From the IMG/VR virus record IMGVR_UViG_2657245588_000006: a stretch of 37,059 nt of DNA. One strand, given 5' to 3'. Origin of the DNA: a virus (taxonomy: Duplodnaviria; Heunggongvirae; Uroviricota; Caudoviricetes). Numbering within the stretch: the first letter of the stretch is position 1; each line of letters opens with the position of its first letter. The notes beneath the pieces are model-generated. The model ran no database searches. It had not been told where the DNA came from and saw only the letters and a list, made by a program, of their open reading frames with translations. Positions 2,902 to 37,059 of the stretch are shown piece after piece. A program made the translations under genes and the position numbers.

Positions 2902-5459
2902 CGTCCACCTCCGGAGAACAGGCCACCATCACGCATCTGTGTCTGAATTTCATCACGGGCACCCTTGCGGGCCATGTCATACACCGCCTTCAGAGCAGCC
3001 GGACCTATCTGCCCGTTCGTGCCGTCGTTGTTAATCACCACATGGTTATTCTGCTCAAACGTCCCGGACGCCTGCGACCGGCTGTCTGCCATGCTGCCCG
3101 GTGTACCGACATAACCGCCGGTGGCATAGCCGCGCATCAGCCGGTAAAGATTCCCCACGCCAATCCGGCTGGTTGCCTCCTTCGTGAAGACAAATTCACC
3201 ACGGTGAACAATCCCCGCTGGCTCATATTTGCCGCCGGTTCCCGTAAATCCTCCGGTTGCAAAATGGAATTTCGCCGCAGCGGCCTGAATGGCTGTACCG
3301 CCTGACGCGGATGCGCCGCCACCAACAGCCCCGCCAATGGCGCTGCCGATACTCCCGACAATCCCCACCATTGCCTGCTTAAGCAGAATTTCTGTCATCA
3401 TGGACAGCACGGAACGGGTGAAGCTGCGCCAGTTCTGCTCACTGCCGGTCAGCATCGCCGCCATATTCTGTGCAATACCATCAAAGGTCTGCGTGGCTGC
3501 ACTTTTTACCTGCGACATACTGTCCGTGGCGCTCTCTTCCCACTCACTCCAGCCGGACTTCAGGCCTGCCATCCAGCTCCCGCGAAGCTGGTCTTCAGCC
3601 GCCCAGGTCTTTTTCTGCTCTGACATGACGTTATTCAGCGCCAGCGGATTATCGCCATACTGTTCCTTCAGGCGCTGTTCCGTGGCTTCCCGTTCTGCCT
3701 GCCGGTCAGTCAGCCCCCGGCTTTTCGCATCAATGGCGGCCCGTTTTGCCCGTTGCTGCTGTGCGAATTTATCCGCCTGCTGCGCCAGCGCGTTCAGGCG
3801 CTCCTGATACGTAACCTTGTCGCCAAGTGCAGCCAGCTGGCGTTTGTACTCCAGCGTCTCATCTTTATGCGCCAGCAGGGATTTCTCCTGTGCAGACAGC
3901 TGGCGACGTTGCGCCGCCTCCTCCAGTACCGCGAACTGACTCTCCGCCTTCCACAAATCCCGGCGCTGCTGGCTGATTTTCTCATTTGCTCCGGCATGCT
4001 TCTCCAGCGTCCGGAGTTCTGCCTGAAGCGTCAGCAGGGCAGCATGAGCACTGTCTTCCTGACGATCGCCCGCAGACACCTTCACGCCGGACTGTTTCGG
4101 CTTTTTCAGCGTCGCTTCATAATCCTTTTTCGCCGCCGCCATCAGCGTGTTGTAATCCGCCTGCAGGATTTTCCCGTCTTTCAGTGCCTTGTTCAGTTCT
4201 TCCTGACGGGCGGTATATTTCTCCAGCGGCGTCTGCAGGCGTTCATAAGCCTTCTGCGCCTCTTCGGTATATTTCAGCCGTGACGCTTCGGTATCGCTCT
4301 GCTGCTGCGCATTTTTGTCCTGTTGACTCTGCTGCTCAGCCTTCTTTCGGGCGGCTTCAAGCGCAAGACGGGCCTTTTCACGATCATCCCAGTAACGCGC
4401 CCGCGCTTCATCGTTAACAAAATAATCATCCTTGCGCAGATTCCAGATATCGTCCGCTTTCTTAAACGCGGCCTCTGCCTTAATCAGCATCTCCTGCGCG
4501 GTATCAGGACGACCAATATCCAGCACCGCATCCCACATGGATTTGAATGCCCGTGCTGTCCTGTCTGCCCAGGTTTCCAGCGTGCCCATGTTCTCTTTCA
4601 GGCGGCGGGTCTGGTCATCAAACCCTTTCGTTGCGGCCTCGTTCGCCGCCTGCAATGCCCCGGCTTCATCGCCGGAACGCTGCAACTGAGCAACATACGC
4701 AATCTGCTCCGCCGTCACGTTATGGAACTGGCGTGCCATCGCCGTCAGCCCCGACGTCGGGTCTGTGGTCAGCTTCCCGAAGGCTTCAGCGACCTTGTCC
4801 ACCTCCACGCCGGATGCAGAGGAGAAACGCGCCACACTCTGGCTGATGGACGCAATCTGAGCCTCACCGCTTACCCCCGCCTTAACCAGTGCGCTGAGTG
4901 ACTCGCTGGTCTGGTTAAACGTCAGCCCTGCCGCCTGCCCGGCTCTGGACAGGACCAGCATACGATCTGCCGTCAGTCCCGCCTGATTGCCGGAAAGGAC
5001 CAGCGTTTTGTTGAAATCGGACAGGGTTGAGTTGCCCTGATACCAGGCATACGCCAGCGCTCCGGTCGCCACCGCCAGCGAGGTAGCCCCCACCATCGGC
5101 AGGGTGATCGCACCGGCAAGCCCCCGGAACATGGGGATCATCCCGCCGAAGGAGTCCTTCACCTGACCCCCCTGTTGCAGCAGGATCAGCCACGGACTTT
5201 GCCCGCCTGCAAGCTGCGTGGCCACGTCGGTGAACTGTGCAGGCAGCATACGCATGGCGGCTTTATACTGCCCGACGGAAATCCCCGCTTTCTGTGCAGC
5301 CAGCGCCTGTCGGCTCAGCGACTGTTCAACGACTGCCGCTGTTTTTTTCGCATCAGTTTCCGTACCGGAAAAATGACGCCTGACTCTGGCCATCTGCTCG
5401 TCAAATCTGGCCGCATCCAGACTTAAATCAACGACCAGATCGCCTACCGGTTCAGCCAT
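2898..5459 (-). CDS. H: Tail tape measure protein H
   Basis: 853-aa ORF, identical in length to lambda gpH; coiled-coil rich with a Gly-rich C-terminal region. Confidence 0.92.
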   Translation of the reverse strand: MAEPVGDLVVDLSLDAARFDEQMARVRRHFSGTETDAKKTAAVVEQSLSRQALAAQKAGISVGQYKAAMRMLPAQFTDVATQLAGGQSPWLILLQQGGQVKDSFGGMIPMFRGLAGAITLPMVGATSLAVATGALAYAWYQGNSTLSDFNKTLVLSGNQAGLTADRMLVLSRAGQAAGLTFNQTSESLSALVKAGVSGEAQIASISQSVARFSSASGVEVDKVAEAFGKLTTDPTSGLTAMARQFHNVTAEQIAYVAQLQRSGDEAGALQAANEAATKGFDDQTRRLKENMGTLETWADRTARAFKSMWDAVLDIGRPDTAQEMLIKAEAAFKKADDIWNLRKDDYFVNDEARARYWDDREKARLALEAARKKAEQQSQQDKNAQQQSDTEASRLKYTEEAQKAYERLQTPLEKYTARQEELNKALKDGKILQADYNTLMAAAKKDYEATLKKPKQSGVKVSAGDRQEDSAHAALLTLQAELRTLEKHAGANEKISQQRRDLWKAESQFAVLEEAAQRRQLSAQEKSLLAHKDETLEYKRQLAALGDKVTYQERLNALAQQADKFAQQQRAKRAAIDAKSRGLTDRQAEREATEQRLKEQYGDNPLALNNVMSEQKKTWAAEDQLRGSWMAGLKSGWSEWEESATDSMSQVKSAATQTFDGIAQNMAAMLTGSEQNWRSFTRSVLSMMTEILLKQAMVGIVGSIGSAIGGAVGGGASASGGTAIQAAAAKFHFATGGFTGTGGKYEPAGIVHRGEFVFTKEATSRIGVGNLYRLMRGYATGGYVGTPGSMADSRSQASGTFEQNNHVVINNDGTNGQIGPAALKAVYDMARKGARDEIQTQMRDGGLFSGGGR

Positions 5460-6305: not shown

Positions 6306-7046
6306 TTAACTGGCGGTGACGGTGATTTCTGCAACCGCAGCAAACTCACCATTACCGGATACAACCGGAATGTTGACCTTGCCTGCAGCAACGCCGTTCA
6401 CGGTGATGGTCATACCACTGACCGACACGGTGGCTTTTGTTTTATCCGCAGACACCGCACGAAAGCTCTTGTCGGTTACGCCCTCCGGCTGGAAGGCCAC
6501 GGTCAGCGTGGTGCTCTGCCCTTTCACCACCGAGGTGCTGGCAGGCGTCACGGTCATGCCGGTTGCCGCTGTTACCGTGCTGCGATCTTCTGCCATCGAC
6601 GGACGTCCCACATTGGTGACTTTCACCGTGCGGGTGATCACTTCCTTCGCCGTCACCGCCTTACCGATACTGCTGACCCAGCCACGGAACACATCGACCG
6701 TGCCGTTCGGGAAGCGGATTTTATAGGCACGGGTATCGCCTTCATTAAACCACGCCAGCAGCGCCTGCTGCCCCTGCTCTCCGGGCATCCACGCCAGCGT
6801 GAAGCTGGTATCTCCGGCAGATTTCTGCCCCTGCCCGGTCGCAGTCCAGTCTGCATCTTCATCATCGAGATAGCTGTCGTCATAGGACTCAGCGGTCAGT
6901 TCGCCGGGCGTCAGGTCTTTAACTTTTGCCAGACGCGACCAGTCAACGTCTGAAAGCGGATTCGCATAAGGGTCACCGCTCCCCTTATAAACCCACAGGG
7001 TGGTCCCGGCACCTTTCACCGGCATTGTAGGATTTGGTACAGGCAT
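6306..7046 (-). CDS. V: Major tail tube protein V (with C-terminal Ig-like domain)
   Basis: Track ORF 6306..7076; internal ATG at 7046 preceded by GAGGA gives 246 aa starting [14 protein letters not shown], the lambda gpV length and start. Confidence 0.9.
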
Positions 7047-7053
7047 AGCGTCC

Positions 7054-7449
7054 TCACATTTCATAGGTAATGACATAAGTCAGATCGGCTGAACTCCACA
7101 GGCCCGCATCATCGTCGCGCCGGTAGTCATAGCCGCTGGCCACCATACTGGTGATCAAATCTGACAGTGCCGGGATATCGCTCATCACCGGATAAATCCG
7201 GGACTCCATCCACGCATCCAGCTCTGAATCCGGCACCTGAGCAGGCAGGAAAACTTCGATATGCAGCTCCGCCTGCCAGGTATCGCTGTCCAGCTCTTCG
7301 CCCGTGTATTCAGCGCCGGTGAGATAAACGGCAACTGCCGGAAAATCCGCCTCATCAAAAACAGCGGGGCGACCATCAAAAAACGTCGCCCCGGTGTCAT
7401 GCTTCTCCAGTGCATCCAGTACGGCTGCACGGAGTTCAGTATGTTTCAT
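7054..7449 (-). CDS. U: Tail terminator protein U
   Basis: 131-aa ORF, lambda gpU length and position. Confidence 0.9.
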
Positions 7450-8024
7450 CGCTTTATTACCATCCTCAGTTGATGCTGCAGCGCATAGCCCAGCTCTTTC
7501 GGAAGACGTTCACGCCGTATCCGCTCAATATTCTGTTTAAACGCCGTGGTCAGCGGCACCGCCATCGGGATTTTCACCACATCAATGGGGTAACGGTTTT
7601 TCCCGGCCACACGCTGCATGACATGCCACCGGCCATTTTTCAGTTGCTGAATAAACGCGCCGGGAATACGACGGTTACCCACCACAAGCACGCTGCCGCC
7701 ACCTTTCAGGGATGAACGCTGCCCCTTTTTACGACGCCTGCGGCGCGAAAGGACAACCCGCGCATTACCCAGCTTGATTACGGGCAAATCCCCCCGGTTA
7801 ACTTTGATTCTGGCCTGCGGATTTTTGACCGTGGCCCTTTTCAGCCTGGCCCTTTCCTTTACCAGTTTCCGGCGTACCTTTGTCTCACGGGCAACTTGTG
7901 ACGCCGACTGCGATATCGCGGATGAAGCAACGCGGTTAATGGCCATTGCGGCGGCACCAGGCACCGCCGTTTTGCTGATACGGCTGAGGTTTTCAACGGC
8001 CTGCTCAAGACCTTTTATGGCCAT
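7446..8024 (-). CDS. Z: Tail completion protein Z
   Basis: 192-aa ORF, lambda gpZ length; overlaps the U start. Confidence 0.9.
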   Translation of the reverse strand: MAIKGLEQAVENLSRISKTAVPGAAAMAINRVASSAISQSASQVARETKVRRKLVKERARLKRATVKNPQARIKVNRGDLPVIKLGNARVVLSRRRRRKKGQRSSLKGGGSVLVVGNRRIPGAFIQQLKNGRWHVMQRVAGKNRYPIDVVKIPMAVPLTTAFKQNIERIRRERLPKELGYALQHQLRMVIKR

Positions 8025-8035
8025 ACATCCCCCTT

Positions 8036-8389
8036 TCAGCGGCGACGGTTAACGGCAGGCGGTACGCCCCGTCCAAGCCAGAGATGACAACTTCCGCCAT
8101 CATCCGGCGAAACCCGATCTACCCAGAAATTTTCCTCACCGATGGTCAGCGTGTCTCCACGCCGCAGCTGCCGCACCTCATCAGTCCGGACAAACAGGGA
8201 CGGGCTGGAGCCTTCAACGCGCACGCCCTGTCCGGCATAGCTGATATTTTCAGGGTCATCAAAAACACCACGTATCACCGCACCTGACTGCTCACCGGAT
8301 GTCATGGTGGCTGACGTTCCCATGTACCCGCGTATCGTTTCATCGGCGCGGGCAATGGCAGCATCGAACAGGTTATCGAAATCAGCCAC
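8036..8389 (-). CDS. FII: Head-tail connector protein FII
   Basis: 117-aa ORF, lambda gpFII length and position. Confidence 0.9.
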   Translation of the reverse strand: MADFDNLFDAAIARADETIRGYMGTSATMTSGEQSGAVIRGVFDDPENISYAGQGVRVEGSSPSLFVRTDEVRQLRRGDTLTIGEENFWVDRVSPDDGGSCHLWLGRGVPPAVNRRR

Positions 8390-8400
8390 AGCGCCTCCCG

Positions 8401-8799
8401 TTATTGCATTCTGGCCAGGCCGCGCTCTGTCATTTCGGCTGCCACACCGGCAGAGACACGAAACGCCGTTCCCGGCAGCACAAATGCCACAGGTTCATCC
8501 CGCGTGGCGTGAAGTGCATCAGTATGCAGCTTCACCAGTGCCACGACCGTGACCAGTTCAGACGTATCCAGAATCACGGTATCCGGCTGCGCTGATCCCA
8601 CCTCATTTTCATGTCCGGTCAGCACATTTTCCCGGCTGAGAGGGGTGTCCTGACCGGCAGTTTCATCCGTGTCATCAAGCTCCTCTTCCAGCTCTGCCAC
8701 ACGGAGCGCCAGTTCTTCTTTCGTCCCCGTCAGGCTGACATCACGGTTCAGTTGTTCACCCAGCGAGCGGAGACGGGCAATCAGTTCATCTTTCGTCAT
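8401..8799 (-). CDS. FI: DNA packaging / head assembly protein FI
   Basis: Track ORF extends to 8838; ATG at 8799 preceded by GGAGGAG gives 132 aa starting MTKDELIARLRSLGEQL, as remembered for lambda gpFI. Confidence 0.88.
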   Translation of the reverse strand: MTKDELIARLRSLGEQLNRDVSLTGTKEELALRVAELEEELDDTDETAGQDTPLSRENVLTGHENEVGSAQPDTVILDTSELVTVVALVKLHTDALHATRDEPVAFVLPGTAFRVSAGVAAEMTERGLARMQ

Positions 8800-21072: not shown

Positions 21073-22068
21073 ATGTTTGAGCAGCGTAAAGCCCTGTATG
21101 CGCAACTGGAACAAGCACGCAATTCAAAAGTATTATGCTATGTAACAGGTGATAGACCAAACCAAGAAGCTCAAATCAGCGCTGATGTATTCGATCTGTT
21201 CGTCAATCATCTTGATGTGATAGGTGATGTTCAAAAAATTAGCCTCGTGCTCTATACGCGAGGCGGCGACACTTTAACAGCATGGAGCCTTGTAAACCTG
21301 CTTCGTCAGTTTTGTAAAGAACTCGAAATCATAATCCCATCCAAATGCCATAGTTCTGGGACGATAATGTGCCTTGGCGCGAACAACTTGGTTATGACCA
21401 AGCAGGCAACCTTAGGGCCAATCGATCCAAGTGTGAATACACCACTTAACCCTTCGGCCATAATCAATGGGCAGCCACTTCAACTTCCAGTCAGTGTTGA
21501 AGAAATCAATGGCTATCTTGAAGTAGTTAAGCATGATTTGAGTATCAAAGATGATGCCTCACTTGCACAGATCCTCCTTGCATTAAGTGAAAAGGTTCAT
21601 CCCTTGGTACTTGGAAAAGTCTATCGAGCTAAAGCGCAGATTCAAATGCTCGCAAGAAAACTACTGTCTCACCAACTCACTGATAGTGAAAGCATTGAGA
21701 AAATTGTAAGTTTCCTTTGTAGTGATTCTGGTAGCCATGACTACACTATAAATAGGATTGAAGCGGTAAACGATTTAGGTCTTACGGTGGAAAAACCAGA
21801 TGAGCACCTTTACGGTCTGATCAAAGAAATTTATGAAGATTTCAAAACTGAGATGCATCTGGGTGAACCTTTTGACCCAAATGCTATCTTAGGAACAGTT
21901 AACCAGGCATCGTACGTATCTGTCAGAAGCATTTTAGAGGCTCCAGACACGTTTTCATATCAATTCCGCACTGAGGGGATGTTACAGCGTTTGCAAGTTC
22001 CAGGCGTCCCAGGTCAGTTCGGCATAAATCATAACCTTATCTCAGAGGGGTGGGCTCGACATGGATAA
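21073..22068 (+). CDS. ClpP/crotonase-fold serine protease, SDH (serine dehydrogenase proteinase)-family-like
   Basis: 331-aa ORF with AAGGA RBS; YTRGGDTLTAWSL and KCHSSGTIMCLGAN resemble the ClpP/SppA oxyanion and Ser-nucleophile regions; oriented opposite to the flanking Q and S genes. Confidence 0.6.
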   Translation: MFEQRKALYAQLEQARNSKVLCYVTGDRPNQEAQISADVFDLFVNHLDVIGDVQKISLVLYTRGGDTLTAWSLVNLLRQFCKELEIIIPSKCHSSGTIMCLGANNLVMTKQATLGPIDPSVNTPLNPSAIINGQPLQLPVSVEEINGYLEVVKHDLSIKDDASLAQILLALSEKVHPLVLGKVYRAKAQIQMLARKLLSHQLTDSESIEKIVSFLCSDSGSHDYTINRIEAVNDLGLTVEKPDEHLYGLIKEIYEDFKTEMHLGEPFDPNAILGTVNQASYVSVRSILEAPDTFSYQFRTEGMLQRLQVPGVPGQFGINHNLISEGWARHG

Positions 22069-24868: not shown

Positions 24869-25191
24869 ACTTTCAGGTCCCTCTCATGTAACCAGTGGGT
24901 TGCACGCAGCCTTGCGTTTTCCTCACCGGCAAGCAGTGCGCGGATAATCCCGACCGCCTCGCTGTCGTCGTCCTTCACCGCGGTATGAAGCGTTATCCCC
25001 CGGGCCACGCCACGCTTTATCGTGATGACGCCTTTTTTCTCCAGTGCGCGAAGATGCTCCACCGCTGCATTCACCGAACGGTATCCCAGCATGGTTGCCA
25101 CCTCCTGATTGGTTGGCGGGAAGCCACGTTCTTTCTGATAAGAAATCAGCATATCCAGCACCTGCTGCTGGCATTGAGTTAACGTCGTCAT
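24865..25191 (-). CDS. LexA-type N-terminal DNA-binding domain protein (no peptidase domain)
   Basis: 108-aa ORF; LTQCQQQVLDMLISYQKERGFPPTNQEVATMLGYRSVNAAVEHLRALEKKGVI resembles the LexA winged helix; AGGGAG RBS. Confidence 0.55.
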   Translation of the reverse strand: MTTLTQCQQQVLDMLISYQKERGFPPTNQEVATMLGYRSVNAAVEHLRALEKKGVITIKRGVARGITLHTAVKDDDSEAVGIIRALLAGEENARLRATHWLHERDLKV

Positions 25192-25259
25192 GCCGCCATC
25201 TCCCTGACCAGTTTTTCTGCCTGCTGGCGAACCTGCGCCAGAAACGCCTCACCACATGC

Positions 25260-25841
25260 CTAAAGTTCATCGCGCCCGATGTAGCTGATTGCCGGTCCCT
25301 TCCAGGTCTTGTCGAAAACAGCAATAGCACCAGCGAAGAAAGCGCCTGTCGGCACCTGCTTCTCATCCTTCGGGATAAACCAGGCAGGCAGTTCAAAACC
25401 AATACGCCCGCGAATAAAAGCAATATGGTCCGCATCTTCCGGCCACCACACTTCGCTGGTGGCAGCTTTGATCAGGAAAACATAGCGCCCGCCCTTATCA
25501 CGCATGGCACTGGCATGTTTCATGATGTAACGCATGCCGGTGATGTATTGCCCCTCATGCTGACTGGCGCGGCTGTATGGGGGATTACCAAAGGCAGCAC
25601 CTTTAAGCTCCGCAAGACGTTCTGACCAGTCATGCGCCAGCGCGTTATCTTCCGCCGTGTAATACGCGGCACATTTGGCGTTATCACCGTCAGTGAACAG
25701 ATCCAGAACAAACGGGCCAAACAGGGTGTTAATTCCCCAGAAAATGTTGTCCGGCGTGCGCCACTGATCGCCCACTTCCTTCAGTTCATGGGCTGGTTTG
25801 TTCCGCAGTTCCACCAGCGCCTGGCAATATTTATTACTCAT
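25260..25841 (-). CDS. Phage DNA N6-adenine methyltransferase (Dam-type)
   Basis: ATG at 25841 overlaps the upstream stop (TAATG); catalytic motif FGNPPYS; about 193 aa. Confidence 0.75.
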   Translation of the reverse strand: MSNKYCQALVELRNKPAHELKEVGDQWRTPDNIFWGINTLFGPFVLDLFTDGDNAKCAAYYTAEDNALAHDWSERLAELKGAAFGNPPYSRASQHEGQYITGMRYIMKHASAMRDKGGRYVFLIKAATSEVWWPEDADHIAFIRGRIGFELPAWFIPKDEKQVPTGAFFAGAIAVFDKTWKGPAISYIGRDEL

Positions 25842-32889: not shown

Positions 32890-32950
32890 TTATCAGGACT
32901 GAAATTTGATATTACTGCCCGTGTGCAGCGGGTTAAGTGGAGAAACAGCC

Positions 32951-33160
32951 ATGGCAAAACTAATGAAAGCGAGCCAATGGGGACGCCGTGAATTCTCTAA
33001 TGGCTCAATTCCTGACAACCGAACGATAAAACGCTGGGTCGAGAACGGTCTGCTCATGGGGCGTATCGTGGACGGTTCTGTTTTTGTCTGCGAAACAGAA
33101 AAATGGGGAGTCGACTCAATGGTTAGTCAAGCTGTTCGCAAGTTAATAAATGAGGGATGA
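32951..33160 (+). CDS. xis: Excisionase
   Basis: ATG at 32951 with GGAG RBS; 69 aa with a lambda-Xis-like pattern (TIKRWVENGLLMGRIVDGSVFV); stop overlaps the int start. Confidence 0.65.
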   Translation: MAKLMKASQWGRREFSNGSIPDNRTIKRWVENGLLMGRIVDGSVFVCETEKWGVDSMVSQAVRKLINEG

Positions 33161-34341
33161 CCATGGCGGCAAGGCCACGTAAAAAAGAATACAGACATCT
33201 TCCTGATTATCTGGTTTTTGATAAAGATCGAGGTGTTTATAAATTCACACTTATTACCGGAAAAAAGAAAAATATAGGTAAGGATCGGGCAATAGCCGTT
33301 GCAATCGCCAGAGAGTACAACCTGAGGATGCGATCAGAATTATACCCATCAGTGGATAATCTTATTAGAGAATCTGGCGGGGTCACCGGAGAAGCAAAAC
33401 CATTTGCTGAACATGTCGATCACATAATGGCCAGAATTATCGAAGACGAACGACCTTCCCAGAGTACCTTAGATGACTGGAAAAATGACGCTCTACGCGT
33501 AAAAGCGTTTTTCGTAAATGTTCCGGCATGCGATATCGAACTTGAACACGTTAATGCCTACATCAACAAATATCATGCCAGCGCATCCGCAAATGTGCAG
33601 AACAGAAAGGTCAGCTTTCTTAAAAAGTTGTTCTCTTATGCGGTCGATGAATCACTAATGCAGGATAACCCGGCCATCAGAAAAAAAATGCGTAGGACTG
33701 ATGAGAAGAAAAGACGGCGCCTGTCACTCGAACATTTTATAGCTATCAGGCAGGCCGCTGCACCATGGTTAAGAACAGCAATGGACCTAGCATTGCAGAC
33801 TACACATGCACGACTCGAAGTATCGCGAATCCGTTACTCAATTCGCGAACCTAAAGACGGTTTATGTGGATGTGTTTGGTTCGAACAACCACAAAATGGC
33901 ATATATGGTACACTATACATCCATAGGCAAAAAGTACAAAAAAAGGAGGCATCACATGTTGCAATACCAATTGGTGAAGAATTGAAACGGATAATTGACA
34001 ATAGCCGTGACAATGTGGCCAGTCCCTTTGTCGTTCATAGAATCCCAGAACGGCATGTTAAACGCAGTAAAGAGGTTTCGCACCCAACTCAAGTTGCACC
34101 AGATTATTTGAGTCGGTCATTCTCTTCCGTGCGAGACAAACTCGGACTATGCAATCATCTAGCAATGGAACAAAGACCTACATTCCATGAAATAAGAGCT
34201 TTGGCAGCTCACCTATTTGATAAACAAGGGATTGATCCGCAGGGACGAATGGCACATAGCGATGCGAAATCTACTAAAATTTATACTAAAAATCATATAG
34301 ATTGGATTGTTGTCCCTCATGGAGAAATTAAAACCGGTTAG
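33157..34341 (+). CDS. int: Tyrosine integrase
   Basis: 394-aa ORF; C-terminal HEIRALAAH and Tyr in STKIYTKNH; a start at 33163 has the better RBS spacing. Confidence 0.85.
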   Translation: MTMAARPRKKEYRHLPDYLVFDKDRGVYKFTLITGKKKNIGKDRAIAVAIAREYNLRMRSELYPSVDNLIRESGGVTGEAKPFAEHVDHIMARIIEDERPSQSTLDDWKNDALRVKAFFVNVPACDIELEHVNAYINKYHASASANVQNRKVSFLKKLFSYAVDESLMQDNPAIRKKMRRTDEKKRRRLSLEHFIAIRQAAAPWLRTAMDLALQTTHARLEVSRIRYSIREPKDGLCGCVWFEQPQNGIYGTLYIHRQKVQKKEASHVAIPIGEELKRIIDNSRDNVASPFVVHRIPERHVKRSKEVSHPTQVAPDYLSRSFSSVRDKLGLCNHLAMEQRPTFHEIRALAAHLFDKQGIDPQGRMAHSDAKSTKIYTKNHIDWIVVPHGEIKTG

Positions 34342-34478
34342 TTATTAAATTCTCCACTTTATTTTGACTGACAATAACGGTTGCTAAGGCATAGAGTAAA
34401 GCTTAATTTAAAAGGCAGTTCTATGCCCATTTACCATAACTTCTCCCTTGTCCAGAAAGCAATATTTATTAATAAAAT

Positions 34479-35435
34479 TTATTTACCCTTATTATACTCT
34501 TCAGTAATCTTATTCATGGATGATATATATTTATCCAGCCCACCATAGTTGGCTATCATTCGAAATGAATTACGGTACTCTGCCATTTTCACATCATGAT
34601 TAGTAATTCCACACCAGCCACAAACTTTATTTTCCATGTTTAAAGGCTCATAACATTTTTTACATTGCCTTGATGCAGGTATTATATTGCCATTAATAAA
34701 TTGGTGTGATTTGAGATTTTGAGATAAAAGAAATGGTGTAGTTGTTGTTTTTCCTATTACCATTTCGAAATATCTACATTTAGCCTTTTTAGCTAAAGAT
34801 TGAATTTTCTGCTTTAATAAATCATTTGATTTGTGCCCAACTATAACTCCAGTTATACAATTAATCGGTACCGGAAGGAGCATAAGATTGTCATTCAGTT
34901 TAGTAAGTGCTTTCTCATTAATTATTACGCGACGTTCCTGCTCATAACTCCAGCAAGTTTGTTTTGTCAAATATGCGGCTGTCATTATACAGGATTGTAG
35001 CCAGTAGATATAACGAGGTTTACAGATATGAAATGCTCTCGCCAGAATGTCTTCAATACCTGTATCTGGAGAATCTTTATATTCAACATCTGCTATTGAA
35101 CTATGATCCTGGAAGCCGATTTCATCCAAATACTTTTTAAACTTCTCCTCATTAATCTCTATTACAAAACCAGAAGAATTACCTGCATAATGTGCCCACA
35201 TAGGTGGTATCACAGGGCTTTTCGTAAAACAAGTTGCTGGTTGTTTTGTAACCATGCCAATCATTTCATTGTAAAATGCTAACTCATCAGAACCGCGATT
35301 AAAATCAATAGTAAGGAAAAACTCATAGGGATCATTATATTCATGTAAATGAGAGAATTTTATTCCTATATGTGTTTCATCCATCATCAATTTATCAATT
35401 ATATCCGCTCCCATAAACTTATACAAATTGGTCAT
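34479..35435 (-). CDS. DUF2971-like protein with C-terminal CxxC...CxxC zinc ribbon (function unknown; family assignment tentative)
   Basis: ATG at 35435 with AGGAG RBS gives 318 aa; N-terminal LYKFMGADIIDKLMMDETHIGIKFSHLHEYNDPYEF pattern; C-terminal CKKCYEPLNMENKVCGWCG; strongly AT-rich. Confidence 0.5.
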   Translation of the reverse strand: MTNLYKFMGADIIDKLMMDETHIGIKFSHLHEYNDPYEFFLTIDFNRGSDELAFYNEMIGMVTKQPATCFTKSPVIPPMWAHYAGNSSGFVIEINEEKFKKYLDEIGFQDHSSIADVEYKDSPDTGIEDILARAFHICKPRYIYWLQSCIMTAAYLTKQTCWSYEQERRVIINEKALTKLNDNLMLLPVPINCITGVIVGHKSNDLLKQKIQSLAKKAKCRYFEMVIGKTTTTPFLLSQNLKSHQFINGNIIPASRQCKKCYEPLNMENKVCGWCGITNHDVKMAEYRNSFRMIANYGGLDKYISSMNKITEEYNKGK

Positions 35436-35480
35436 ATACAACTCCTTTTTTATAAAATAACATTTTAAATCATATGATTA

Positions 35481-35882
35481 TGGAGGCACAAAATCCAGTA
35501 ATTAGTTTTCAAGCCGGTTGTGATGTAGTTCGAGGACAAACTGAAACGTATTATTGATAACAGTCGCGATAACGTTGCCTGCCCGTATATCGTTCACCGT
35601 ATACCGAGCGTAATAACAAACGCAGTAAAGAGGTATCCGCACCTGCCTATCTTAGCCATACTTTTCATTGCCCCGTGATTCGTTAGGCTTGTGTAATAAT
35701 TTGACGATGGAGCTGCGCCCCCACATTCCACAAAATACGCGCACTAGCTGCATTTTGTTTGATAAACAGGGAGTAGACCACAAGGGCTCATAGCCCACAG
35801 CGACGCGAAATCAACGAAAATTTATACGCGGAACCATATGATTGGGTAATGCTTCCGCACGGTGAAATTAAATACAATGCAT
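35481..35882 (+). pseudogene. Diverged 3' remnant of a second tyrosine-integrase gene
   Basis: DNA alignable by eye to the int 3' end at about 33945..34341, ending at the equivalent stop codon; no intact upstream ORF. Confidence 0.6.
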
Positions 35883-35886
35883 AATA

Positions 35887-35913
35887 AAATTGGCCTCAAA
35901 TGAGGCCAATTTT
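35887..35913. terminator. Inverted-repeat hairpin between convergent transcription units
   Basis: AAAATTGGCCTCA aa TGAGGCCAATTTT with A/T-rich flanks on both sides. Confidence 0.4.
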
Positions 35914-35918
35914 GGGGA

Positions 35919-36302
35919 TTAGGACGCTTTAGACTTGGTCATATTAGCGCAACGCTGGATTAATTTCTCTGCAGTCTTAATCGCGGTGCTTGATTGGGTT
36001 GGCGTAATAGTGTCGTTAAGTCTGTAATCACAAACTATTCTCTGATCCTTAAGCGATTGAAGAGCATACCCCAAACCAATTAAGTCTCTTTTTTCAAAAG
36101 GTTCGTTACCCTTCCAAGCATCGTTAACAAGATAGTCAATGAGGCCTTGGTGACTTTCTTTCGGCCCCATGGTCAAACACGGAAGTACGTGGTGATAAGC
36201 ACCATAATACGCACGTGCGACAGCGTTTCTGTAACCAATTTCGTCGTTACGCTTTTCACAATCTTTTGCGAAAGCGATAAAATCGGAACTATTAACTGGC
36301 AC
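35919..36302 (-). CDS. Hypothetical protein, second gene of a two-gene operon
   Basis: Track ORF starts at a TTG at 36353; GTG at 36302 has GGAGG 9 nt upstream and overlaps the upstream stop by 11 nt; contains an R-x6-H element RAYYGAYH. Confidence 0.45.
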   Translation of the reverse strand: MPVNSSDFIAFAKDCEKRNDEIGYRNAVARAYYGAYHHVLPCLTMGPKESHQGLIDYLVNDAWKGNEPFEKRDLIGLGYALQSLKDQRIVCDYRLNDTITPTQSSTAIKTAEKLIQRCANMTKSKAS

Positions 36303-37059
36303 GCGCAGGTTCCTCCAAACGCCCTTCAAACCATACGCTGAAGGGTTTTCCAATCAAACTTTCATTTTCTGCAAGAGAAAATGCTATATCCAAGTTCATA
36401 TCAGAGAGAACATCAGAATCTTCAGTATTAACTGCCATGACATATGATGACGTACGCTCTTCAGGGATAGAGCAGAAAGACATAGCAACAGGACTAACTT
36501 TATGGTCAGCCATGATATCCACTATGCGGTTTGCAATATCCTGTAGTTCTTCATCAGTAATTCCAGTTGCACTTTTGAAGGTCGTGGATTGGGCCAGTGC
36601 TGTGGCTGCGAGGTGCTTAACCAATTCAGCCTCCTTTTCATCTACCATACTTATCAATCTCTCAGCATAGTAGAGCGCTTTGTCAATACGCCCCAAGAAC
36701 AAGTTAGCTTCCCATGCATGGGACAGCATCGTAGGGGAGTTATAACGTTCAACTAATCGATTTACCACTTGTTCAACTTCACGGAAGCTGCCGTAATCGT
36801 TGAGATAAACTACATAATTTTGAGCAATGATCAGGTTGTTATGCTTCAATGCTTCTTCAAAGAATGCAACTGCAGTATCTTTACGCCCAAAAGCACCATT
36901 AGCCAACGCTTTGAGATAGTCCTCAGATGCGCTGTCGCGCAACTTTTCTATATCTCTGATATAACGAAAATATTGCATTTCGGATATCGTATTCCGAGCC
37001 GCAAGAATATCGATTAATTCACTGCTGATTTCGTTCGCTTTTAGCGCCGGCTGTGGCAT
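36292..37059 (-). CDS. Hypothetical largely helical protein, first gene of the operon; N-terminus may lie outside the window
   Basis: 255 codons open from the window edge (an ATG sits at 37059..37057) to the stop at 36292; no family recognised. Confidence 0.5.
   Translation of the reverse strand: MPQPALKANEISSELIDILAARNTISEMQYFRYIRDIEKLRDSASEDYLKALANGAFGRKDTAVAFFEEALKHNNLIIAQNYVVYLNDYGSFREVEQVVNRLVERYNSPTMLSHAWEANLFLGRIDKALYYAERLISMVDEKEAELVKHLAATALAQSTTFKSATGITDEELQDIANRIVDIMADHKVSPVAMSFCSIPEERTSSYVMAVNTEDSDVLSDMNLDIAFSLAENESLIGKPFSVWFEGRLEEPARAS

Follow-up and report, generated by a model that had tools for sequence, protein, structure and literature searches.

Why does a temperate phage carry, beside its intact integrase gene, a second and broken copy of that gene's 3' end? 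We asked this of the window, a stretch of 37,059 nucleotides of phage DNA whose right-hand part holds both copies. A first, sequence-only reading took the broken copy for the relic of an older, related element integrated at the same site, so that the prophage would end between the two copies or just past the second. Our analysis leads to another answer. The remnant is very probably the non-functional scar of a fusion, inside one prophage, between the integrase-DUF2971 end of one kind of phage (type A) and the integrase gene of another (type B). In itself it is a routine pseudogene, already flagged in RefSeq, and a recombination scar in a mosaic prophage. The features at issue are these (window coordinates and strand, with the source in brackets where one applies):

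32906-33160 (PGAP start 32951), plus strand: xis-like excisionase gene, directly 5' of int (open reading frame list; coding sequence at L001 14852-15061)
33157-34341, plus strand: intact lambda-type tyrosine integrase gene (int), 394 aa, with attachment specificity for proL, a tRNA-Pro gene (Pfam, PHROG)
34342-35513: cassette 1, type A, AT-rich, carrying the DUF2971 gene; it ends on the right at the scar junction, whose left side it forms
34479-35441, minus strand: DUF2971 gene, 320 aa, ADP-ribosyltransferase-like candidate defence gene (Pfam, PADLOC)
35514-35884, plus strand: remnant of a second, type-B integrase gene, 3'-terminal, about codons 262-394 (alignment, blastn/tblastn, PGAP pseudogene)
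35890-35909: hairpin TTGGCCTC-AAAT-GAGGCCAA between the stops of the remnant and p144 (read from the sequence)
35919-36353, minus strand: first gene of cassette 2, p144, 144 aa, phrog_5176 (a PHROG of unknown function)
36292-37059, minus strand: second gene of cassette 2, TPR-like protein, 255 aa, phrog_17809 (a PHROG of unknown function)

A decayed integrase 3' end within one prophage

The segment is significantly similar to the 3' end of int. With blastn, 35401-36000 gives two collinear matches to int: 35758-35872 aligns with 34216-34332 (73.5% identity, E 3e-14), and 35539-35643 with 33980-34084 (73.6%, E 1e-12). With tblastn, int residues 257-392 map onto the remnant in two reading frames (E 6e-15 and 5e-9). 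Identity to the last third of int (33955-34341) is ~70% overall, and a MAFFT alignment shows the damage: a deletion of ~15 bp and several 1-bp indels, in a sequence that also carries stop codons and at least three frame changes. All three methods bear out the initial observation that some 400 bp here align to a diverged int 3' end. The extent proposed for it (35481-35882) was right at the stop but began 10-30 bp too early. By sliding-window and change-point comparison, homology starts at window position ~35514, opposite int coordinate ~33954, and runs for ~370 bp to the equivalent stop codon at 35882-35884; the junction zone is 35489-35514, which resolves the left breakpoint to ~25 bp. Similarity was also said to cease at the stop, and this is true with respect to the window's own int, which matches only to the stop codon.

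What survives is the C-terminal catalytic region, homologous to that of lambda-type tyrosine integrases and including the HxxR and Tyr motifs; 'FHKIRALAA' and 'AHSDAKSTKIYTRNH' are recognisable in it, in two different frames. The remnant has no complete open reading frame with arm-binding and core-binding domains, homology starting only at codon ~262, and RefSeq/PGAP labels it 'recombinase, frameshifted, incomplete, missing N-terminus'. The intact int carries the Pfam domains Arm-DNA-bind_1 and Phage_integrase and falls in a PHROG integrase family. Its relatives always have a proL core adjoining, and they too keep the xis-like gene upstream.

Where does the prophage end? The window is identical to part of the chromosome of E. 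coli DDG220 (NZ_CP130706.1, ~3137036-3174094), where a lambdoid prophage lies between proL and yejO. The search for a direct repeat matching the other prophage end, which the sequence-only reading had proposed, succeeded beyond the window: the two ends share a single long direct repeat, a perfect 54-mer, CATGGGGTGTCGGGGGTCGGAGGTTCAAATCCTCTCGTGCCGACCAAAAATCCC, which is the 3' part of proL. At the tail-fibre end of the prophage the repeat is part of proL itself; at the opposite end its second copy occupies window-equivalent 37498-37551, flanked by the TPR gene and yejO and 439 bp past the window's last base; the attP arm and attR core (~37372-37551) are thus outside the window. When the outer flanks are joined, they give the natural empty yejM-proL-yejO site of 695 bp. 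Of 5426 complete E. coli genomes, 3784 have this site in contiguous form (one match spanning at least 80% of the 695 bp), and in the best-matching ones it is 100% identical over its whole length. Because the empty site is reproduced, the 54-bp repeats are the real insertion boundaries. They enclose the remnant, which is not at the prophage edge.

Nothing inside the window marks a second boundary. A 32-nt core pattern, allowing up to three mismatches, found no proL-type att core in it, and ARAGORN found no tRNA anywhere in it; no att copy adjoins the remnant, and no internal hybrid att site lies between two elements. Int, the DUF2971 gene, the remnant, p144 and the TPR gene are all within one att-bounded element. 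The outer repeats, the exact empty site and the absence of an internal att site or tRNA therefore describe one prophage with an internal scar.

These results make it most improbable that the remnant is an older, separate, decaying element, with the prophage ending in 34342-35480 or just past the remnant. Part of that proposal stands, since the remnant does descend from a related integrase that shares the att specificity. Two prophages can occupy proL in tandem, as we describe below, and in Pseudoalteromonas (L125) such a remnant does sit in a truly degenerate relic flanked by att sites. The idea of two elements side by side does not stand: besides the missing internal att core or tRNA fragment and the outer pair of repeats that encloses everything, the attP arm follows the TPR gene and not int or the remnant, none of the 5426 genomes has the remnant without an adjoining DUF2971 cassette, and an older relic without the newer element was not seen among them. 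An integrase fragment is an unreliable marker of a prophage boundary; here the true end is 1.6 kb past it. In IMG/VR, provirus ends that are called automatically often fall at int or close to it.

Parental layouts, cargo slot and decay of the scar

If the remnant is a fusion scar within one prophage, phages with each parental layout might still exist, and both layouts are found. We collected about 100 loci of the int family by searching IMG/VR with the TPR protein and int, and one genome per species with int. Type B (xis-int-p144-TPR-attP) is represented by six IMG/VR relatives (L010-L013, L015 and L016, whose contigs appear a second time as L040, L044, L047, L062 and L063) and by one locus in Pseudocitrobacter (L100). 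These relatives have an intact int (78-90% amino acid identity), with p144 and the TPR gene starting ~50 bp after it, and have neither a DUF2971 gene nor a remnant; in those with enough downstream sequence, the proL core follows the int stop at a distance of ~1627 bp. Type A (xis-int-DUF2971-attP) is represented by L037 and L042, whose DUF2971 homologues are 81-83% identical in amino acid sequence. In L037 the conserved attP arm sets in ~70 bp past the start codon of the DUF2971 gene, at the point where the window has the beginning of the remnant. DNA identity between these type-A relatives and the window is only ~78%.

From this comparison the window reads as a type-A left part fused to a type-B right part. 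The remnant's C-terminus, '...EIKYNA*', differs from the 'EIKTG*' of the window's own int, and its last ~35 bp, the hairpin at 35890-35909 and the 3' end of p144 are collinear with the int 3' junction of L010-L012; in type-B phages p144 is linked to int. The hairpin, which type-B phages conserve where int meets p144, is probably a bidirectional terminator. Its sole Rfam match is a sub-threshold, chance one, and promoter and terminator scans gave no more matches than shuffled sequence is expected to give. The nearest intact allele to the remnant, L092 from IMG/VR, is only 81% identical to it, so the exact type-B parent is not among the sampled alleles. A search of complete E. coli genomes for a closer full-length parent int gave none, and a phage collection holds only distant relatives (~71% identity over int).

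How might the two types have been joined? A type-A int and DUF2971 end would have been linked to codon ~262 of a type-B int by illegitimate or microhomology-mediated recombination, with loss of the type-A attP and of the first two thirds of the type-B int. An arrangement from which this could start is seen on one 84-kb contig (IMGVR_UViG_2916441648_000002), which carries two related, non-identical prophages in the same orientation (L094 and L095). Each ends with int and then a proL core, the two modules lie 42.4 kb apart, and tail-fibre, Lom-like and J genes come after the first core, which makes this a natural case of tandem lysogeny at proL. For the lineage of the window we infer, as the likeliest route, a deletion of ~42 kb in a tandem A-B double lysogen, with one end at the distal edge of the internal attP arm and the other at codon ~262 in the second int. 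The same product would arise if two genomes underwent an equivalent exchange while co-replicating or on co-infection. An A-rich tract at the breakpoint could have supplied the microhomology: immediately left of the junction stand 16 nt, AAAATCCAGTAATTAG, that are similar to the type-A flank of L037, AAAATCTAGTAGGG, as well as to the A-rich tract of int, AAGGTACAGAAAAAAG, which suggests a microhomology-mediated join. The product would retain one working int, one attP, one pair of att sites and a packageable genome with two stacked cassettes, and would integrate and spread as a unit between its 54-bp proL repeats.

The stacking has a context in the gap between int and attP. A conserved attP arm of ~125 bp ('TGGGGA...TAACTCATTGATGTATATAGCG...GCACTGTTTG...') always abuts the core. 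In relatives without cargo the int stop is only 10-25 bp ahead of this arm and 133-166 bp from the core. With one cassette the distance from int stop to core grows to 1.1-1.9 kb, and the cargo is of many unrelated kinds; a distance of 3160 bp is seen in the window's type only. The range of 133-3160 bp and the conserved arm therefore define the int-attP gap as a variable cargo slot, with the conserved flanks and the content varying across relatives that characterise a cargo hotspot. The window's phage holds two cassettes stacked in it. A compact slot with 0, 1 or 2 cassettes is thereby documented for a widespread phage family that integrates at proL in enterobacteria and related gamma-proteobacteria, and the window shows how two cassettes came to be stacked.

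Across relatives the slot contains DUF2971/PDC-S31, SLATT plus SMODS genes (E. coli ESY002), an Mrr-like gene and others, so that its cargo includes candidate defence genes, as hinted at the level of protein families. The cassette-1 protein matches Pfam DUF2971 (1.8e-9) and the PADLOC candidate PDC-S31 (4e-22). Members of the DUF2971 family have an ADP-ribosyltransferase-like fold and are related to DarT and AbiGi (PMC12522546), and one of them, Aristaios, is an experimentally active single-gene Abi system (PMC11381338). In cassette 2, p144 has no match in Pfam, PADLOC or NCBIfam, a profile search with it against the PDB was empty, and its single-sequence structure model has a pLDDT of 40; the start codon of the TPR gene is the window's final triplet. 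Both genes contain a protospacer with an ATG PAM. The one in the TPR gene (36449-36480) is matched exactly by a 32-nt E. coli type I-E spacer, in the CRISPR array beside queE in DH5alpha, and the same match, of 33 nt, is reported for LY180 and KO11FL; the one in p144 (36033-36064) is matched exactly by a 32-nt type I-E spacer of other E. coli strains. The cargo genes have thus been sampled by CRISPR systems as foreign, mobile DNA. Elsewhere in the window, the annotation of the identical genome places an 'SDH family Clp fold serine proteinase' gene at 21073-22068 (plus strand), between the lysis genes and Q and likely accessory, and an N6-adenine methyltransferase pseudogene with an internal stop at 25188-25841 (minus strand).

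The composite has spread. It is present in ~51 complete E. coli genomes, including strains labelled O25b:H4-ST131 and ST167. Among the 5426 genomes, all 52 near-full matches and one diverged copy have the DUF2971 gene beside the remnant, and the DUF2971 cassette is found in E. coli complete genomes in this composite only. As cassette and remnant are always together, the scar travels with the phage. Single copies of the composite have gained insertion sequences: in strain T309.Ta3 an IS903B (L097 1886-2854) lies between int and the DUF2971 gene and clips the last int codons, and in strain GZ04-0086 (H25, H184) an IS1 lies within the cassette-1 (DUF2971) segment.

T309.Ta3 carries the same composite, with a left junction identical base for base. 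Its remnant and the window copy agree at only 70-90% of positions per 100 bp, with indels, against 94-100% for the flanking cassettes. The amino acid identity of the remnant to int is 73-89% in T309.Ta3 and 36-39% in the window. An identical junction together with a fast-diverging remnant therefore speaks for a single event followed by unconstrained decay, and the pattern, that of an unconstrained pseudogene, indicates a remnant that drifts neutrally.

Might the remnant nevertheless be kept for a function, as a regulatory RNA, as promoter or terminator context, or as a homology arm for cassette exchange? Remnants do persist across many genomes. Two loci of another remnant type, L113 and L014, are alike on both sides of the cargo (88% over remnant and left flank, 89% over attP arm and core) but carry different cargo, and here the 3' end of the remnant and the attP arm have served as arms for cassette exchange. 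We nevertheless regard selection for a function as exceedingly improbable. The two window-type copies differ by 10-30% per 100 bp where their flanks differ by 0-6%, no Rfam family reaches threshold, promoter-like matches are at shuffle level, and a role as homology arm would be a by-product rather than a selected function.

The intact int has a history of its own. It is 95-98% identical to the alleles of L023, L028 and L029 until ~33880, and then 85% and 77%; mismatches to these alleles amount to 3% up to 33876, 10% in 33909-34060 and 21% beyond 34060. Family-wide, the agreement in pairwise identity between neighbouring 200-bp blocks falls from ~33850 on. This mosaicism shows that homologous exchange has also taken place in the 3' third of int, a recombination-prone region; exchange there fits the role of the region as the left arm for cassette exchange.

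The mosaic also raises a different origin for the duplicate, by replacement of the kind known from icd in phages 21 and e14. Here a small element consisting of int codons 262-394 plus DUF2971 would have inserted into int at codon ~262, made the gene whole again in frame with its own copy and displaced the original 3' end. This would explain why the 3' third of int is of other ancestry than the 5' two thirds, why the remnant starts in about the same region, and why the breakpoint recurs in other phages. Yet we hold it to be highly unlikely. Replacement calls for an ancestry switch exactly at the start of the duplicate (~33954), and the switch is found at ~33880-33909, 50-80 bp upstream; moreover, divergence along int climbs stepwise and not at one point. 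The alleles mismatch as well, the remnant being L092-like and the 5' part of int L023-like. Finally, in neither of the other two remnant types does any 5' part of int precede the remnant, and no recombinase or att-like repeats flank the cassette. We thus keep to the fusion of a type-A end with a type-B int, and, given that the mosaic switch lies upstream of the breakpoint, more than one recombination event may have shaped the locus.

Three breakpoints near int codon 262

The breakpoint of the window recurs. Three enterobacterial remnant types break within ~20 bp of one another at int codon ~262, just 3' of a run of seven or eight A residues (A7-8): the window type starts at ~33954, and the L003 and L014/L113 types at ~33955-33956. 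The stretch concerned is window ~33930-33960, or int codons ~258-264, and in the numbering of L003 the junction is at ~5979. Their left partners are int and the DUF2971 gene in the window type, a thrW int/attP module in the L003 type and an apparent icd-type module in the L014/L113 type.

The L003 type occurs in ~47 E. coli genomes, in a related phage that is integrated at thrW with a different integrase and bounded by a 49-bp tRNA-Thr repeat. Its remnant is followed by SLATT and SMODS genes and then by an unrecombined, vestigial proL-type attP with both arm and core. In L003 (5967-8328) and L098 (39688-40896; E. coli ESY002) the thrW phage keeps this vestigial proL module and with it the old slot; the two loci represent a replacement of the integration module.

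In the L014/L113 type the remnant lies near an icd C-terminal fragment, which suggests that the phage uses an icd-type integration module; a search of IMG/VR for further L014-type loci gave none. In L113, from Klebsiella quasipneumoniae, the icd fragment is at 4146-4298, ~700 bp left of the int remnant. The same locus has a P4-like integrase island at 7178-8437, which starts ~240 bp after a vestigial proL-type core at 6938, and a phage-borne, tRNA-Pro-like att core may here have been used as an attachment site by another element.

Do the three junctions descend from one? The nearest intact alleles of the three remnant types are different (L092, L058 and L083), identity between remnants is 67-78%, and the left flanks of the three junctions have no significant mutual similarity (p 0.10-0.95). 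Common descent was accordingly rejected, and the different alleles and unrelated flanks favour independent events. The chance of a three-fold coincidence of breakpoints is, as a rough figure, ~1e-3. Such sharing is not what random illegitimate recombination leads one to expect, and some bias, mutational or selective, appears to be at work.

Other disrupted copies of int cluster less tightly. Many int copies in databases are frameshifted at the A7-8 run at ~33936-33944 (P0010-P0013, P0015, P0018, P0041 and P0073), their N-terminus being int read out of frame and entering the frame at 'KKEASHV'; some of these may reflect a slippage hotspot or homopolymer sequencing error. Looser truncations were found in Pseudoalteromonas L125 (from about residue 264-283), in L127 (from residue 277 or earlier) and in Yersinia ruckeri L123 (from residue 288, directly beside an element of the IS605 family), in a search for truncated proteins that is length-biased because it returned only proteins of up to 241 residues. 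Short forms starting at M168 and M209 were rejected as truncations, because they are full-length genes split by a frameshift.

One way to obtain a common breakpoint is for Int itself to have recombined an attP, such as the internal one of a tandem lysogen, with a pseudo-core in int ('CATGT(G/T)GC', against the core 'CATGGGGTG') and to have deleted the intervening phage. The three junction types do meet at the same 'CATG', motifs like CATG(G/T)GG can be picked out by eye in the core, at the distal edge of the attP arm and at the int site, and the distal edge of the type-A attP arm coincides with the donor break in the window type. However, such an event predicts the ~125-bp attP arm beside the remnant, and it is absent there in all three types; comparisons of the flank with the arm and with the 5' half of the tRNA are non-significant (p 0.17-0.41), and the likeness between the motifs is short. 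We judge catalysis by Int very unlikely, and continue to favour illegitimate or microhomology-mediated joining.

More broadly, codon ~262 ('CATGT(G/T)GC', 3' of the A7-8 run) is a possible, if doubtful, preferred joining point for incoming integration or cargo modules. The clustering may stem from microhomology or breakage at the A-tract, from action of Int on a pseudo-core, from selection against fragments that retain the catalytic Arg and Lys, or from sampling. If true, the preference would offer a recurrent route for stacking cargo, or for swapping integration specificity with the old cargo slot kept, and a real hotspot would point to a specific mechanism of module replacement in temperate phages.

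Comparison with known systems

Lambdoid prophages exchange modules, gather accessory ('moron') genes at their ends and bear gene fragments that mark illegitimate joins. The remnant is the same kind of scar at a module junction. Here, the scar is a piece of integrase gene, and it separates two cassettes stacked in a gap, from the int stop to the attP arm, that is only 10-25 bp long in relatives without cargo.

In the icd system of e14 and phage 21, site-specific integration duplicates the 3' end of the target gene, leaving the icdC pseudogene, which marks the prophage end. In both this system and the window, a diverged duplicate of a 3' end, running to the equivalent stop, lies apart from the intact gene, and one of the two copies is decaying. 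The difference is that in the window the phage's own int is duplicated, no att site is found at the junction, and the mosaic switch is off the start of the duplicate.

Tandem polylysogeny followed by deletion provides a parallel to the proposed origin. Two related phages can occupy the same att, as in L094/L095, and an internal deletion in such a pair would give the fusion that is observed. A decayed tandem relic would look different from the window, in which int and xis are intact, the att repeats are perfect, the genome is full-length and the element is found in many lineages.

Hotspots of anti-phage systems are reportedly present in P2-like phages and P4-like satellites (Rousset et al. 2022, PMC9122126). 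These hotspots likewise combine a set location, flanked by conserved phage genes or sites, with highly variable cargo that includes defence genes. The slot described here differs in belonging to a lambdoid, proL-integrating family and in its position between int and attP, and the defence role of its cargo is a candidate one. The cassette-1 DUF2971 protein, a single-domain protein of 320 aa, can be likened by family and size to Aristaios, which has 316 aa (PMC11381338).
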